A stretch of 64,000 nucleotides of DNA from a virus. Lineage: Duplodnaviria; Caudoviricetes. Below, one piece after another: positions 22,363 to 33,177 of this stretch. Below the pieces are notes generated by a model. It was not told where the DNA came from, made no database searches, and worked only from the letters and a program-made list of their open reading frames with translations. Position 1 is the stretch's first letter. Every line of letters begins with the position of its first letter. The stretch lies in the IMG/VR virus record IMGVR_UViG_3300046678_000067, positions 32,001 to 96,000 of that record. One strand, written 5' to 3'. Made by a program: the position numbers and the translations under genes.

Positions 22363-22905
22363 ATGAAGTATAGCGTCATTCCGGGTTCCGGTGATGCAGA
22401 GTTGATCGTAGTGCGTGGACTTCCCGGTTCTGGAAAGTCCTCATTCGCCAAGACTCTGACGGATACCCTTGTTATTGAATCAGACATGTGGTGGTATCGT
22501 AATCCTCAACTAGAATATCAATTCGATTTCGACCTTCTGAGCCGCGCTCATCGCTGGGCTTTGCAGTCGGCAGAAGCGTTCTTGGCTGACGGTCGATGCG
22601 TTGCAGTAGCAAATACAAACCTGACTTTCCGTGAAGCTAAAGGCTATGTTGCTTTTGCCAAGGCTATCGGTTGCCCTATTTCCGTCTATACGATGGATAA
22701 GGGAGTCAACTATGGAAGCATCCACGGCGTACCGAAAGAAGTGATGGTACGGATGCACAATAAGATGGAATCACACGAAGTATTCATGGAGAAAGCAATT
22801 GCTTATCAACCCGACGGAACTGAAGGAATTTGTCGAGACAAACCCCAAGCTGGTCTCTCGGAAGGAGTCCAAGCGGCATCCGGGTCTGTTCGTACTGAAG
22901 TATAA
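22363..22905 (+). CDS. P-loop kinase (AAA_33 / polynucleotide kinase-like)
   Basis: RGLPGSGKS, VANTN, SIHGVP. Confidence 0.8.
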   Translation: MKYSVIPGSGDAELIVVRGLPGSGKSSFAKTLTDTLVIESDMWWYRNPQLEYQFDFDLLSRAHRWALQSAEAFLADGRCVAVANTNLTFREAKGYVAFAKAIGCPISVYTMDKGVNYGSIHGVPKEVMVRMHNKMESHEVFMEKAIAYQPDGTEGICRDKPQAGLSEGVQAASGSVRTEV

Positions 22906-23722
22906 GAACAACGTATTCTATGATAACCTTTGGCACCTCAGCCCGTTTCTGAATAAGTGCCGAGGATTGGTTGTAGATAAAGACTACAACGTTATCATCA
23001 AACCGTTTACAAAGGTATTCAATCATCATGAGAATGGGACGGACATTGATCGGGACGAGCTTTGCACTGTTGTCCGCAAGGTCAATGGCTTCATGGGCGT
23101 CGCAACTTATGCTCCGAGTTTTTCTGATGACATCATTTACTCTACTACTGGCAGTCTTGACAGTGACTATGTCGATTTGGTTAAGAAGCATGTAGCTCAG
23201 TATGAGGATCGGATTAAGTCTTGCGGTCCATGCACCTTCATCTTTGAGATTTGCGACGAAACCGATCCGCATATCATCAAGGAAGAATTCGGAGCTTGGT
23301 TGATCGGCGGTTCAGTATATCACAACGATCAATCTTATCCGGTGTTGGAGAGCGTACTAGATCATTTGGCATATCACTGGGAATGTAAGCGCCCTGAGCA
23401 TCACCCTTGTCTGAGATTCTCAGAAGTGGTAAAGATGGCCAAGGAATGTAAACACGAAGGTTATATGGTCTATGGTAGGTTTTCAGGCACGTCTCTGAAG
23501 ATCAAATCGCCATATTACCTGGTAACTAAATTCCTTGCTCGTGCAGGAGAAAAGAAATTGCTTGAAGGTGTCCTCTCGGAGAACCGTTATCAGGCAATGC
23601 AGAAATTTGATGAAGAGTTCTATCCGTTGCTAGGGTTTCTGTTTGCCCACAAGGAAGAATTCTTGACCCTAGATGAACAAGCCCGAATCAATATCATTCG
23701 AGGCTATTTGGAGGATAAATGA
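22799..23722 (+). CDS. RNA ligase (Rnl1-like)
   Basis: CRGLVV, PFTKVFN, KVNG (motif I), FIFEI, EGYMV, LKIKSPYY. Confidence 0.85.
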   Translation: MLINPTELKEFVETNPKLVSRKESKRHPGLFVLKYKNNVFYDNLWHLSPFLNKCRGLVVDKDYNVIIKPFTKVFNHHENGTDIDRDELCTVVRKVNGFMGVATYAPSFSDDIIYSTTGSLDSDYVDLVKKHVAQYEDRIKSCGPCTFIFEICDETDPHIIKEEFGAWLIGGSVYHNDQSYPVLESVLDHLAYHWECKRPEHHPCLRFSEVVKMAKECKHEGYMVYGRFSGTSLKIKSPYYLVTKFLARAGEKKLLEGVLSENRYQAMQKFDEEFYPLLGFLFAHKEEFLTLDEQARINIIRGYLEDK

Positions 23723-24264
23723 ATTTGTATGACACTTTCTTTACCAGCGATACGCATTATTACCATAAGCGTATTCAAGAGTTTTGCCCTGATACGCGGG
23801 CTGGTAAGGATGCAGAAGAAATGACTGAGATCATGATCGACAACTGGAATAAGGTTGTTAAGCCTCATGATCGGGTTTACCACTTGGGTGACTTTAGCTT
23901 TGGTAGTTATGCAAAGACGGCAGAGGTTCTTGGACGACTGAACGGCAACATCGAGTTGATTATGGGTAACCATGATGGTAAGACTATCCGTAGTTTGTCT
24001 GGATACTTTGCTTCTATGAAGGACTACGACCATATCAAAATTGGGGATCAATACCTAGTATTGTGTCACTTCCCTATTGAGAATTGGCGTGAGATGAAAC
24101 ACGGTACAATCCATCTTCACGGACACTTGCACGGCGATAGTCACCATGGTGATCGAAAGATTCAAGGTCGCATCGACGTTGGTGTTGATACCCGTAAGGA
24201 TCGACTCATGACACCATACCACTATGACGAAGTTTTGGAGATTGTGAAGAATGGCGGCCATTAA
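23719..24264 (+). CDS. Calcineurin-like metallophosphoesterase
   Basis: SDTH, HLGDF, GNHD, HGHLH. Confidence 0.9.
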   Translation: MNLYDTFFTSDTHYYHKRIQEFCPDTRAGKDAEEMTEIMIDNWNKVVKPHDRVYHLGDFSFGSYAKTAEVLGRLNGNIELIMGNHDGKTIRSLSGYFASMKDYDHIKIGDQYLVLCHFPIENWREMKHGTIHLHGHLHGDSHHGDRKIQGRIDVGVDTRKDRLMTPYHYDEVLEIVKNGGH

Positions 24265-24565
24265 GAAAGTCAAAGTTCCGTTTGATAAAGACGGCAATAT
24301 GTTACATAAAGATCGCGGTAATGCAGCACAATATTCAGAAGTGGATGCCCCATTCAGAGAACATATGACTTTCAAGTCTATCCAGCGTTGGTCGTCTAAC
24401 GTTGTGATATTTGAGAATGGAGTAGGTAATACTTTCTATATGAGCCAAGGTGAATTCGAGAACAATATCAAGTATATGGTTCGCGGGGTTCTGGAAGGTA
24501 GGTTTTACTTCCATAAGCAAGGCCAGTATTTTAGTTTGAAGTATATCCCAGATGCCGTCATTTGA
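24251..24565 (+). CDS. Hypothetical protein
   Basis: 104-aa ORF in packed operon. Confidence 0.65.
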   Translation: MAAIKKVKVPFDKDGNMLHKDRGNAAQYSEVDAPFREHMTFKSIQRWSSNVVIFENGVGNTFYMSQGEFENNIKYMVRGVLEGRFYFHKQGQYFSLKYIPDAVI

Positions 24566-25310
24566 TCTGGTAAAGGCTAGAAAGAATAGCGCTGATAAGC
24601 AGTTTCGGCAGCGCTTTCTAGAGGAATACGATTGCTACAATATTGACTCTCCTACAGGACGCTTATATGTTACGCCAGACGGTAGCCGTTTTCCATCGGT
24701 TACTACCTTTCTCGGTTCTCTTGAGAAGGATGATGGCTGGTTTGAAAGGTGGGCTGAGAAGCTAGGAGGTATTGATAAGGCTAATGCTGAATCTGAGCGA
24801 TGCGCTACGCGCGGAACCGGGGTTCACTTGGCCTTAGAATATCTTCTCAAGAACAACCCAAAGCCTGAAGAGGCAGGTGATTATCAATTCATGTATCGTC
24901 AGATTGAACGTGTAATGCGTATTCACGTCGATGATATCTATGGGTTGGAACTGCCGATGTGGTCTAAGAAGATGGGTCTTGCAGGTCGGGTAGACTGCAT
25001 TGCCAAATACAAAGGCGAGTTGGCCATCATCGACTTTAAGACTGCGACGAAAGAGAAGCTGGCTAAGTTTATTACCAACTACTTCCTTCAAGCTACATGC
25101 TATTCGATTATGCTTGAGGAGCTATACGGTTTGAAAGCCGAGAAGCTAGTCATCATTATCTCTGTTGAGCAAGCGGCTGAAGCTCAAGTCTTTGTTAGGG
25201 ATCGCCGCGACTATATGGTTTTGCTTGCTGAGAAGATCAAGGAATTCCGTGTGATCCAGTCAGAGAAAGAAGCTAAGAAATCAGATGATCTTTTCGCTAT
25301 GTTCGCATAG
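24552..25310 (+). CDS. PD-(D/E)XK exonuclease
   Basis: FPSVTTFL, RGTGVH, AGRVDC, IIDFKT, YFLQATCY. Confidence 0.88.
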   Translation: MPSFDLVKARKNSADKQFRQRFLEEYDCYNIDSPTGRLYVTPDGSRFPSVTTFLGSLEKDDGWFERWAEKLGGIDKANAESERCATRGTGVHLALEYLLKNNPKPEEAGDYQFMYRQIERVMRIHVDDIYGLELPMWSKKMGLAGRVDCIAKYKGELAIIDFKTATKEKLAKFITNYFLQATCYSIMLEELYGLKAEKLVIIISVEQAAEAQVFVRDRRDYMVLLAEKIKEFRVIQSEKEAKKSDDLFAMFA

Positions 25311-25353
25311 TTAGGGTATAATCTCTTTATCGAAACTTACATAGTTAAATGAT

Positions 25354-25836
25354 ATGCCGATAGTTAAAACTGTAAAGGGCGATTTGCTGAAGATGTTCAA
25401 GGATGGAGAATTCGATGCCATCGCCCACGGCTGTAACTGTTTCCATACGATGGGATCGGGAATTGCTGGACAGATCTCAAAGCAATTCCCTATCGCTCTG
25501 GAAGCGGATAAGAAACAGACGTTGATGGGTAACGTCAAGAAGTTGGGTGACTACACCCGCGCATATACGAATCACGGATGGATCATCAATGCGTATACGC
25601 AATATCATCCGGGTTATTCGACAGAAGATGTTCTATATCCGGCCATTGAAAGTGTTTTCACCCGGATAAACAAGTATGTCGCACCTATGCTCGAATTTGT
25701 ATCAGACACTGATCTTAATTTGGGAATTCCTAAAATTGGCGCGGGAATTGCTGGTGGAGATTGGAACCGTATTGAAGGAATTATTAACCGTGTTAGCCCA
25801 AGGCTATCCATAACCCTGGTGGAATGGGACCGGTAA
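25354..25836 (+). CDS. Macrodomain (ADP-ribose processing) protein
   Basis: VKGDLL, IAHGCNCFHTMGSGIA, PKIGAGIAGGDW. Confidence 0.9.
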   Translation: MPIVKTVKGDLLKMFKDGEFDAIAHGCNCFHTMGSGIAGQISKQFPIALEADKKQTLMGNVKKLGDYTRAYTNHGWIINAYTQYHPGYSTEDVLYPAIESVFTRINKYVAPMLEFVSDTDLNLGIPKIGAGIAGGDWNRIEGIINRVSPRLSITLVEWDR

Positions 25837-28293: not shown

Positions 28294-28482
28294 ATGTCTC
28301 GTCAAAGTAAGAATGTGAAGAAGCGCGCAGAAGCAAAGCAGATCACCGCGATGCACAAGAAGGGCGAAAAGGGTCCGAAGCAAACCAAGGCTGTACACGG
28401 TAAAGACCCTGCGAAGCGTCTGTATACGAAGTTGAAGCGCGGCCCGAATGATACGTCGCGTGAGAAGGCAAAGACTAAGTAG
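28294..28482 (+). CDS. Small, highly basic protein
   Basis: 62 aa, very K/R-rich; AGGT RBS-like upstream. Confidence 0.7.
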   Translation: MSRQSKNVKKRAEAKQITAMHKKGEKGPKQTKAVHGKDPAKRLYTKLKRGPNDTSREKAKTK

Positions 28483-28491
28483 TTTTACTGA

Positions 28492-28575
28492 GGATAGGTT
28501 GCTGAGTGGTCAAAAGCGCCGGATTGCAAACCCGGTTCGAAAGATTCGTGGGTTCGAATCCCTCTCTATCCTCCA
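28492..28575 (+). tRNA. tRNA-Cys(GCA) with long variable region
   Basis: CCGGA-TT-GCA-AA-CCCGG; T73; CCA. Confidence 0.88.
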
Positions 28576-28577
28576 AT

Positions 28578-28653
28578 CGAGAAGTAGCTCAGTCGGTAGA
28601 GCAACGGATTCATATTCCGTGTGTCGGCGGTTCGATCCCGCCTTTCTCGACCA
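28578..28653 (+). tRNA. tRNA-Met/Ile2(CAT)
   Basis: ACGGA-TT-CAT-AT-TCCGT; CCA. Confidence 0.9.
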
Positions 28654-28658
28654 AATCT

Positions 28659-28787
28659 CGGAACTTATCCAAGTGGTAAGGAAACCCGTGTGTATCGGGA
28701 AGTAATGAAATTCAAACGGCGTCGGAGTACGATACGAGTTGAGTAGTGAAAATGAAATTGCTAGTTCGATTCTAGCAGTTCCGACCA
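28659..28787 (+). ncRNA. tRNA-like RNA with ~80-nt insert replacing the anticodon arm
   Basis: CGGAACT/AGTTCCG-A-CCA, D-arm, GCTAG-TTCGATT-CTAGC T-arm. Confidence 0.75.
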
Positions 28788-28792
28788 GTTTA

Positions 28793-28907
28793 GATTGTGT
28801 GTCAAGGCGACCACTATACAGGATGATGTGGGGAAGCGACAAAACAGGCGTCGGTCCTTCCAGGTATAGCGTTCCACAGATAGGTTCGATTCCTTACGCA
28901 ATCACCA
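28793..28907 (+). ncRNA. tRNA-like RNA with long internal hairpin
   Basis: GATTGTG/CGCAATC-A-CCA, AGGTTCGATTCCT T-arm; CTATAC/GTATAG, GGAAG/CTTCC, CGAC/GTCG inner helices. Confidence 0.72.
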
Positions 28908-28915
28908 AGTTTTAT

Positions 28916-28990
28916 CCCGCGTTCGTTTATTGGTAGGATGGGCGATATGTTCATCGTCAGAATGAGGTTCGATTCCTTGACGCGGGGCCA
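28916..28990 (+). tRNA. tRNA-sized RNA with non-canonical anticodon loop (undetermined)
   Basis: CCCGCGT/ACGCGGG-G-CCA; GGCGAT-ATGTTC-ATCGTC arm lacks a 7-nt loop. Confidence 0.7.
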
Positions 28991-29010
28991 GTACTAAGTA
29001 TTATTACAAT

Positions 29011-30225: not shown

Positions 30226-31056
30226 ATGAGAATGAAAAAGCTACTTGCTGCACTATTGATCGCCGCTGGCGTATTTGGTCTAGTTGACGGTTCTACCGCA
30301 GCTACAAATGAAGTTGGACAAACGTCTAGTATTGCTGTTGAGGCACCTTTTGGTCTACCGACTGACAACGTAGATGGTACGATTGTAGCTCACAAGGCTT
30401 TCGTATTGAAGCACGATAATGCGGCCAAGATTCCGGTTTGGGTTGCTTATACCCTAACTCCTCAACATACTGAAGGGTTAGTTGCACGTCAGGATAGTTT
30501 TAAGGCCGATGCTCTTCTACACGAAGGTCAACGGGCTGAACTGAATGACTATCGCAATAGCGGCTATGACAAGGGCCATTTGGCTAACAATGCAGATATG
30601 GCTTGGGAACTAGATGTCGACCAGGACAGTTTCCTGTTGTCTAATATGGCACCTCAACTACATGCTTTCAATGCAGGTATTTGGGAGGAACTGGAAGAAA
30701 ATGTTCGCGGTTGGGCGTTTAATCGTCAACACACGATGCTAGTATATGATGGTCCAATCTACAATAAGCAAGATAAGACTATCGGCGCTGATCACGTAGT
30801 TGTCCCGCATTCGTTCTATAAGATCGTTGTGGATGAAGTAACTAAAGAGTCTATGACTTTTGTGTTCCCTCATCAGGCTATCTCGATTAAAGCTGATATG
30901 ACGCCTTATCTGGTATCTGTCGATGCGGTTGAGAAAGCGACTGGCGTTTCATTCCCGGTTCCTGGTAGTAAGACAGTGGTTGCTAAGGTTGTATGGCCGG
31001 ATGATCTATCGAAGTTTAAAGCCGATAAATCAGCGAAAAAAGCAGCCGCTAAGTAA
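30226..31056 (+). CDS. DNA/RNA non-specific endonuclease with signal peptide
   Basis: PVWVAYTL, SGYDKGHL, LSNMAPQ..FNAGIW..LE, VPHSFYK; MKKLLAALLIAAG leader. Confidence 0.92.
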   Translation: MRMKKLLAALLIAAGVFGLVDGSTAATNEVGQTSSIAVEAPFGLPTDNVDGTIVAHKAFVLKHDNAAKIPVWVAYTLTPQHTEGLVARQDSFKADALLHEGQRAELNDYRNSGYDKGHLANNADMAWELDVDQDSFLLSNMAPQLHAFNAGIWEELEENVRGWAFNRQHTMLVYDGPIYNKQDKTIGADHVVVPHSFYKIVVDEVTKESMTFVFPHQAISIKADMTPYLVSVDAVEKATGVSFPVPGSKTVVAKVVWPDDLSKFKADKSAKKAAAK

Positions 31057-32351: not shown

Positions 32352-32457
32352 AGTTTTAAAGAATTTGCCTTGCCACCAGTGGCGGTAAATGAAGACCGTT
32401 TGAGGAGATAATCGCGGCGCCAGTTCCCCGAAGTTACTGGTTTCTCCACTAATTATT

Positions 32458-32945: not shown

Positions 32946-33032
32946 GGAGTGGAAGCATCAACGGTGATGCAGCGGACTGTAAATCCGCCGCCCCAACGGG
33001 CACGCCTGGTTCGATCCCAGGACACTCCACCA
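32946..33032 (+). tRNA. tRNA-Tyr(GTA)
   Basis: GCGGA-CT-GTA-AA-TCCGC; long variable arm; CCA. Confidence 0.92.
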
Positions 33033-33037
33033 ATTAT

Positions 33038-33177
33038 GGGATGATCTACACAAGTATATTGTGGAACCTTTTCTGCTAGCGCTGGCCGCATCGGAGAAGC
33101 AATATATTTGCTCCGGTGCACGTAGAATGCTGGGTTGATCTCCAGCTGGGTTGGTTCGACTCCTTCTCATCCCTCCG
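33038..33177 (+). ncRNA. tRNA-like RNA with large insert
   Basis: GGGATGA/TCATCCC acceptor-like stem, GGTTCGACTCC T-loop, inner CCGGAG.AAGCAA/TTGCTCCGG-type hairpin; ends TCCG. Confidence 0.6.

Follow-up and report, generated by a model that had tools for sequence, protein, structure and literature searches.

Three tandem elements (E1, E2 and E3), which lie within the tRNA island of an uncultured large phage, each carry the upper half of a tRNA on a lower half that has been rebuilt in its own way. Comparison with relatives shows selection on the upper half, which is kept tRNA-like, as well as on the rebuilt lower halves and, to judge from their sequences, E1-E3 are almost certainly incapable of reading codons. 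We tentatively view them as trans-acting, non-decoding 'tRNA-shell' RNAs that would serve as ligands, a reading that falls a little short of probable and in which both expression and function are putative.

The 64,000-nt stretch of DNA that was analysed (the window) is part of the 116.8-kb IMG/VR virus record IMGVR_UViG_3300046678_000067, which is estimated to be 74% complete. The phage has a T4-type gp23 capsid protein, a scaffold protein and a prohead protease but stands nearest to Ackermannviridae-like phages, its nearest cultured relatives being Delftia phage PhiW-14 (58%) and Ralstonia phage RSP15 (63%, classed in Ackermannviridae). In RSP15 the synteny of capsid and NAD-salvage genes is kept, but the stretch has no annotated tRNA genes. 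By ARAGORN, the part of the window from 25.9 to 33.4 kb holds 23 tRNA genes on the + strand. The island is preceded by an RNA-repair-like cassette that encodes a Pnk-like kinase/ATPase, an Rnl1-type RNA ligase (with a TTG start, a GGAG site and a 107-nt overlap with the kinase gene), a phosphoesterase, a PD-(D/E)XK nuclease and a macro-domain phosphatase, while genes for NAD salvage (NAMPT and NMNAT-Nudix) lie downstream of E1-E3.

Two ordinary tRNAs, tRNA-Cys and tRNA-Met, head a tight array in which E1-E3 follow directly 3' (Table 1), on the same strand as the cluster tRNAs, as is the case for the stable RNAs of T4 and T5. The gaps are 5 nt (tRNA-Met/E1), 5 nt (E1/E2) and 8 nt (E2/E3), E3 is followed by a 20-nt spacer and tRNA-Ile, and no terminator was found within the one-strand array of Cys, Met and E1-E3 (spacing 2-8 nt). 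The CTAAGTA motif directly upstream of tRNA-Cys, eight of whose 12 copies in the window are on the + strand within 27.9-31.8 kb, that is, concentrated in the RNA island, is probably the start of the transcription unit carrying E1-E3, its role as a promoter being putative. The two promoter-like signals between E3 and tRNA-Ile probably mark the start of the next unit, which would make E3 the last gene of its own.

Table 1. Positions of E1-E3, their parts and neighbouring features in the window.
Feature	Position	Strand	Remarks
RNA-repair-like cassette	22363-25836		directly upstream of the tRNA island
tRNA with UUA anticodon	26032-26104		no encoded CCA
Gene for 62-aa protein	28294-28482		lysine-rich
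CTAAGTA promoter-like motif	28475-28481	+	directly 5' of tRNA-Cys
tRNA-Cys(GCA)	28492-28575	+	ARAGORN; Rfam 50.1 bits
tRNA-Met(CAU)	28578-28653	+	ARAGORN; Rfam 64.9 bits
E1	28659-28787	+	class-II-like tRNA shell, 129 nt
E1 acceptor stem	28659-28665 / 28777-28783	+	
E1 D arm	28668-28682	+	
E1 anticodon-like hairpin	28684-28700	+	loop 28689-28695
E1 variable-region insert	28701-28759	+	59 nt; contains covarying hairpin 28720-28731
Near copy of E2 loop motif in E1 insert	28714-28723	+	AAACGGCGUC
E1 T arm	28760-28776	+	
E1 ACCA	28784-28787	+	
E2	28793-28907	+	tRNA top half and rebuilt lower half, 115 nt
E2 acceptor stem	28793-28799 / 28897-28903	+	
E2 mini D arm	28801-28811	+	3-4 bp, loop with GG
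E2 helix P3	28814-28819 / 28864-28869	+	6 bp
E2 pseudoknot	28827-28831 / 28874-28878	+	just 5' of P4 / variable-region position; crosses P3
E2 hairpin P4	28832-28861	+	8-9 bp, 11-13-nt loop
E2 invariant apical-loop motif	28842-28852	+	AAACAGGCGUC, 11 nt
E2 T arm	28880-28896	+	
E2 ACCA	28904-28907	+	
E3	28916-28990	+	complete cloverleaf, 75 nt, 21 pairs; ends GCCA
E3 anticodon loop	28946-28953	+	UAUGUUCA, 8 nt; closed by 5-bp stem
Sigma-70-like promoter match (10/12)	28977-29004	+	between E3 and tRNA-Ile; consensus match only
Second CTAAGTA	28994-29000	+	between E3 and tRNA-Ile; consensus match only
tRNA-like gene with CAU loop	31926-31997		72 nt
Spacer between two tRNA-Leu genes	32352-32457		106 nt
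Fourth long tRNA-like element	33038-33174		137 nt

Inspection of the sequence places all three elements exactly where the preliminary description had them, and the acceptor stem, T arm and NCCA end that it claimed for the first two are present in all three. E1, E2 and E3 all have a perfect acceptor stem (seven of seven pairs) abutting a T arm with a UUCGAUU loop, GG in the D loop, and a discriminator followed by an encoded CCA, and hence every feature of a canonical tRNA upper half (7-bp acceptor, UUCRA T loop, D-loop GG, 3' NCCA). What they lack is a canonical anticodon loop (7 nt, U33, three-base anticodon): E1 has G33, E2 has no such loop and E3 has one of 8 nt. As a check against chance, the whole 116.8-kb record was scanned by script on both strands for seven of seven acceptor pairs abutting a T arm with a UUCRA loop. 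Matches ending in CCA are confined to the tRNA cluster, E1, E2 and E3 among them, and the few matches outside it all have weak T stems and no CCA. In the dedicated tRNA searches that the preliminary description had proposed, ARAGORN reports E3 alone among the three elements, as 'tRNA-???' with a two-base anticodon, and the Rfam model RF00005 (gathering threshold 29 bits), which 21 neighbouring tRNAs pass, gives no match for E1, E2 or E3 at E ≤ 10. Searches of E1-E3 with other Rfam families returned nothing at E ≤ 10 except T-loop fragments, and, folded singly, the three elements have unremarkable MFE z-scores (-1.7, -0.7 and -0.8). That tRNA finders silently pass over a whole class of phage RNA genes is a caution for annotators.

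Relatives were sought by scans of IMG/VR and JGI metagenomes and by blastn of the locus against GenBank phages, and only two related genomes were found there: a 28-kb contig (L002/G002), in which a neighbouring protein is 93% identical, and a complete 170.7-kb genome (L003/G001), in which it is 72% identical. E2 is present in all three genomes, each time between tRNA-Met and tRNA-Ile, and E1 and E3 in the window and L002 only, L003 being without both. Covariation was thus assessed on three sequences for E2 and two each for E1 and E3, which are few and related. The neutral level was taken from the four-fold degenerate sites of a neighbouring 210-aa gene, 66 of 94 of which (70%) are identical between the window and L002. 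Between the same two genomes the true tRNAs are 88-97% identical, E3 96%, E1 86% and E2 61.5%. The perfect acceptor stem, NCCA, canonical T loop and D-loop GG are retained in the relatives' copies as well. The discriminator varies between relatives in all three elements (A/G in E1, G/A in E3), which argues against one fixed synthetase as their partner and is neutral on a role as decoys.

E1 resembles a class II tRNA. It has U8-A9, a 3-bp D stem, a D loop of the A14/GG/A21 type and a perfect T arm, and the best outside matches to the model built from it (R2) are class II tRNA-Ser genes (35 and 29 bits). The preliminary description had E1 carry its insert in place of the anticodon arm, which does not hold: an anticodon-like hairpin is kept (four stem pairs in the window, five in L002) and the 59-nt insert sits in the variable region. 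The 7-nt loop of this hairpin, UGUGUAU, has G at the position of U33, a nucleotide that is universal in tRNA anticodon loops. Between the window and L002, four of 25 pairs are changed on both sides (none in slid controls) and 98% of cells are paired, so that eight of the 18 differences form four compensatory pairs, of which one is in the anticodon-like stem, two are in the T stem and one is in the insert hairpin. The inserts of E1 and E2, which had been described as unrelated, turn out to have in common the motif AAAC(A)GGCGUCGG, at 13 of 14 positions, a similarity equalled in score by 34 of 2000 shuffles. The resulting near copy of the E2 loop in E1 is partly paired, inside the covarying local hairpin.

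Three further leads in E1 were followed and dropped. A 9-nt direct repeat flanks the insert in the window and resembles an insertion footprint; it is degenerate in L002 (six of nine positions) and is mentioned as a remark only. Kissing between the anticodon-like loop and the insert, for which five pairs are possible, is not claimed, with about one such match expected by chance and no covariation. Finally, E1 and the region of E. coli 23S rRNA around 1899-1962 (domain IV) have an 8-mer and a 10-mer in common, in the same order, but the alignment score is ordinary (47 of 200 shuffles score as high) and the structural contexts differ, which points to chance.

In E2 the anticodon arm is indeed replaced, as had been proposed, its place being occupied by a module that consists of helix P3, a purine-rich joiner, a 5-nt pseudoknot strand and the P4 hairpin. 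The T stem has three Watson-Crick pairs plus U.U and A.A. Model R1 finds E2 once in the window and once in each of the contigs L003 and L002. In the alignment of these three sequences, which was fitted by the model, 13 of 27 pairs have changes on both strands of the helix, with 98.7% of cells paired, values reached by none of 500 shuffles (slid controls, 0-1). The pseudoknot, UGUGG/CCACA in the window and L003, has become CCCGA/UCGGG in L002, with four of its five pairs changed on both sides and 100% paired in an alignment likewise fitted by the model. The copies of the window and L003 are nearly identical in the inner module and have compensatory changes in the acceptor, D and P3 stems, while in L002 the inner module is largely rewritten, with the architecture and the loop retained. 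The P4 loop motif is identical in all three genomes while its flanking stems change, and this invariant 11-nt loop and the pseudoknot offer a concrete handle for mutagenesis and pull-downs. The 9-bp acceptor/3-bp T-stem geometry of allo-tRNAs (PMC5389517) was considered for E2, whose acceptor might be lengthened by U8-A and G9.U in the window and in L003; such an extension is impossible in L002 and competes with the covarying D stem.

E3 has the size and the complete fold of a tRNA, with three G.U pairs in the D stem and a 4-nt variable loop. The 6/8-nt loop noticed earlier is a normal 5-bp stem with an 8-nt loop, which may alternatively be drawn as 6 bp with a 6-nt loop. Only three differences separate it from the copy in L002, that is, one compensatory pair beside the loop (A-U to G-C) and the discriminator, and all 21 pairs are kept. 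The D arm and the variable loop resemble those of Glu/Trp-type tRNAs, and no close parent was found for E3 among 281 phage tRNAs. The anticodon loop begins U-A, which puts U33 out of register.

The selection for function that the preliminary description had suspected is borne out by these comparisons, since the stems covary and are kept in relatives, and E1 and E3 are on a par with the true tRNAs in conservation (86% and 96% identity against a neutral level of ~70%). Random decay of the stems in relatives was looked for and compensated stems were found instead; covariation together with above-neutral identity removes the random-decay scenario. The further possibility that the inserts are spliced out to give ordinary tRNAs is answered in part, at the level of sequence: no splicing scenario yields an ordinary tRNA, since the 5-8-nt spacers contain no exon pieces and excision of the inserts leaves no canonical anticodon loop, and the insert of E2 is its best-conserved part.

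As far as their sequences tell, E1-E3 belong with the 'tRNA-like stable RNAs' of T4 and T5 in kind, without homology to them. The parallel with T4 RNA C and D drawn in the preliminary description is apt, and T5 RNA1 and RNA2 are an even closer described analogue. All four are expressed stable RNAs from tRNA clusters (PMC9697503), and the roles of RNA C and D are still called unknown in reviews and in a 2022 omics study (PMC3014915, PMC9697503). In GenBank AY543070 (T5), RNA1 (30501-30644, 144 nt) and RNA2 (32959-33083, 125 nt) are labelled misc_RNA, 'tRNA-like stable RNA with unknown functions', and other stable RNAs are annotated too. Like E1-E3, RNA1 and RNA2 lie inside the tRNA cluster and have the anticodon region replaced by an unrelated structure, and in their folds a foreign middle is surrounded by an acceptor-like terminal helix, a hairpin resembling a D arm, and a canonical T arm; unlike E1-E3, they have, as annotated, no clean discriminator and CCA end. 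Neither a pseudoknot and invariant loop of the E2 type nor an 8-nt-loop cloverleaf of the E3 type is annotated in T5. T4 rnaC and rnaD (species 1 and 2; NC_000866 70908-71171) are stable RNAs in tandem, 139 and 119 nt long, with which the tRNA cluster ends. Of these, rnaC has a canonical T arm, as E1-E3 do, but its terminal helix is imperfect (five of seven pairs by our reading) and it has no encoded CCA, and rnaD has no T loop. Models R1 and R2, run over the tRNA regions of T5 and T4, matched true tRNAs only and left the stable RNAs of both phages unmatched. To our knowledge, none of these T4 and T5 RNAs, although known for decades, has an assigned function, and to these the present locus adds three new designs, each unlike the other two and each clearly under selection.

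Two other families of tRNA-like RNAs invite comparison. In tmRNA, as in E2, a long helix and a pseudoknot take the place of the anticodon arm below a tRNA top half (acceptor, T arm and CCA), but E2 lacks both G3.U70 and a tag reading frame, and its length is only 115 nt. Pair 3-70 is G-C in E1, U-A in E2 and C-G in E3, ARAGORN reports no tmRNA, and tmRNA models match T-loop fragments only (7-8 bits); with neither G3.U70 nor a tag frame, and with ARAGORN negative, E1-E3 are not tmRNAs. YrlA and the bacterial Y RNAs (RF02553) are non-coding, have a tRNA-like module and are phage-borne too, and they have been proposed as ligands of tRNA-acting enzymes. In YrlA, however, the tRNA-like part lies inside the RNA, whose ends make the Ro-binding stem, whereas the ends of E1-E3 form the acceptor stem and CCA. 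RF02553 matches only neighbouring true tRNAs (15-20 bits against a cut-off of 69), and a YrlA-like identity was rejected on both grounds.

How such RNAs might be made and used can be sketched as follows: (i) E1-E3 would be transcribed in one precursor with tRNA-Cys and tRNA-Met; (ii) host RNase P, as the anatomy suggests, would recognise each acceptor/T minihelix and cut at its 5' end, the 5-8-nt trailers then being trimmed by exonucleases to the encoded CCA; (iii) the acceptor, T arm and D-loop/T-loop elbow, as conservation indicates, are kept tRNA-like under selection, while the lower half is rebuilt in a way that precludes a normal anticodon (by G33 and a structured 59-nt variable arm in E1, by a pseudoknot-locked 6-bp helix and a long hairpin with the invariant loop in E2, and by the 8-nt loop in E3); and (iv) the shell would provide maturation, stability and access to tRNA-binding proteins, and the rebuilt arm specificity. 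The most probable use of such ligands would be competitive binding, as decoys or inhibitors, of host factors that act on tRNAs, which would suit an island whose other genes serve to sustain translation under attack. With E1-E3 beside a full tRNA set, RNA repair and NAD salvage, a role in the defence of translation becomes testable.

A narrower version, in which E1-E3 are counter-defence decoys, abundant CCA-ended look-alikes that soak up or inhibit tRNA-attacking host enzymes, is unlikely. The targets, no more probable in themselves, would be anticodon nucleases or acceptor-end-modifying toxins, with the E2 loop as a specific inhibitor module, and the RNAs would act together with the adjacent kinase/ligase tRNA-repair cassette. 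A decoy for an anticodon nuclease is expected to copy a real anticodon loop, however, which E1-E3 do not, and this counts against it. If true, it would give the T4/T5-type 'tRNA-like stable RNAs' their first assigned function.

Explanations without a protein ligand were weighed against the same evidence. The E2 loop and its copy in E1 could be an antisense seed, the tRNA shell being a stabilising scaffold for a small regulatory RNA, in line with an unpaired 11-nt loop that is identical in three genomes on a covarying closing stem and with the similar motif in the E1 insert. We consider this unlikely, as the rest of the 116.8-kb phage record has no site complementary to the E2 loop over at least 9 nt, its one 11-nt complement of the E1 motif is within chance expectation, and the motif in E1 is partly paired. 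One or more of the elements might instead be unusual working tRNAs, with E3 as an expanded-loop tRNA for four-base decoding or +1 frameshifting, or as a nuclease-resistant isoacceptor, and E1 as a class II tRNA whose variable arm is unusually large. The cloverleaf of E3 is full, with every tertiary hallmark and a strictly conserved loop, 8-nt anticodon loops are the hallmark of frameshift-suppressor tRNAs, ARAGORN finds neither tRNA-Lys nor tRNA-Val in the window, and class II tRNA-Ser genes score best with R2 among outsiders. Nevertheless, such a decoding role is quite unlikely: neither E1 nor E3 offers U33 with an in-register anticodon, and a Lys or Val anticodon is in neither loop; a discriminator that changes between relatives is odd for a fixed amino-acid identity; the Rfam tRNA model does not match; and in E2 the anticodon loop is entirely absent and the T stem has 3 bp. 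The sufD-type frameshift suppressors, like E3, have a normal cloverleaf with one extra anticodon-loop nucleotide, but the loop of E3 does not start with pyrimidine-32/U33 followed by a four-base anticodon, and we know of no matching programmed site. At the kinase/ligase overlap, the sole site inspected, there is no gene that requires frameshifting; a +1 frameshift there as a client of E3 was rejected, the ligase having its own TTG start and GGAG ribosome site.

Nor would E1-E3 need an existence after release if they were cis-only processing punctuation, recognised by RNase P or RNase E, for the neighbouring tRNAs. RNase P requires only the top half of a tRNA, and the elements are tightly placed inside a polycistronic array, but punctuation leaves the selection on the lower halves unexplained (the pseudoknot, P4 and loop of E2, the stem and insert hairpin of E1, the anticodon arm of E3), and true tRNAs adjoin without such spacers (Cys and Met are 2 nt apart), which makes it distinctly unlikely. 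Least of all do E1-E3 look like tRNA pseudogenes, damaged by insertion and drifting towards loss. The failure of tRNA models on E1-E3, the footprint-like repeat in E1 and the absence of E1 and E3 from L003 would be expected of such relics. Compensatory changes in every helix class, identity far above neutral, and acceptor stems that are perfect and followed by CCA in all copies would not, and we hold this reading, which covariation largely refutes, to be highly improbable.

Several other features of the island and its relatives deserve mention. The fourth long tRNA-like element has a perfect 7-bp terminal helix, a UUCGACU T loop on a weak stem and no CCA, and is 85% identical in L002 (folding z-score -3.2). 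The 72-nt tRNA-like gene, made up of 68 nt, the discriminator and CCA, has a very small D arm and a CAU anticodon loop. ARAGORN misses it in the window but calls its homologue in L002 tRNA-Met, and its Rfam score of 17.9 bits is below the cut-off; T5 has related 'UGCGGG...CAU' genes, as does another phage contig, where the gene (L151:1244-1341) carries an insert in the D arm. The 106-nt spacer between two tRNA-Leu genes, 95% identical to L002 and 86% to L003, outdoes several tRNAs in conservation, which suggests another non-coding RNA, with no strong fold (z-score 0.09). The tRNA with a UUA anticodon would read ochre codons. L003 has tRNAs for Lys(UUU), Lys(CUU) and Val(UAC) and one with an amber-reading CUA anticodon, and by ARAGORN the window is without Lys and Val; L003 also has a 124-nt structured spacer between tRNA-Tyr and tRNA-Met (L003:7335-7458), with a 7-bp terminal helix and no T arm.

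The 62-aa lysine-rich protein encoded just upstream of tRNA-Cys (MSRQSK...) belongs to no Pfam or PHROG family and has ten homologues in other assemblies by protein search, with an invariant N-terminus. In several unrelated phage contigs of 48-360 kb (L149-L151 and L153) its gene has tRNA genes around it or close by; two others of 230-330 kb (L146 and L147) also carry the gene, but no tRNA was called in the stretch examined. In L002 an extra gene (L002:6549-7233) with a GIY-YIG-type N-terminus, by eye a likely homing endonuclease, separates the 62-aa gene from the upstream non-coding RNA; this insertion is absent from the window. In a second T5 entry, AY587007 (28000-44100; L136), the listed tRNA coordinates are 68 nt off the positions given by ARAGORN and the models, those of AY543070 being normal. 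Finally, tRNA-shell elements of 153-162 nt occur in other large phages reached via the neighbouring 210-aa protein (L037:4209-4361, L038:3869-4021 and L132:4786-4947), with R2 scores of 14-26 bits, and one of them has a U1-A72 Gln-like shell around a middle of ~80 nt.
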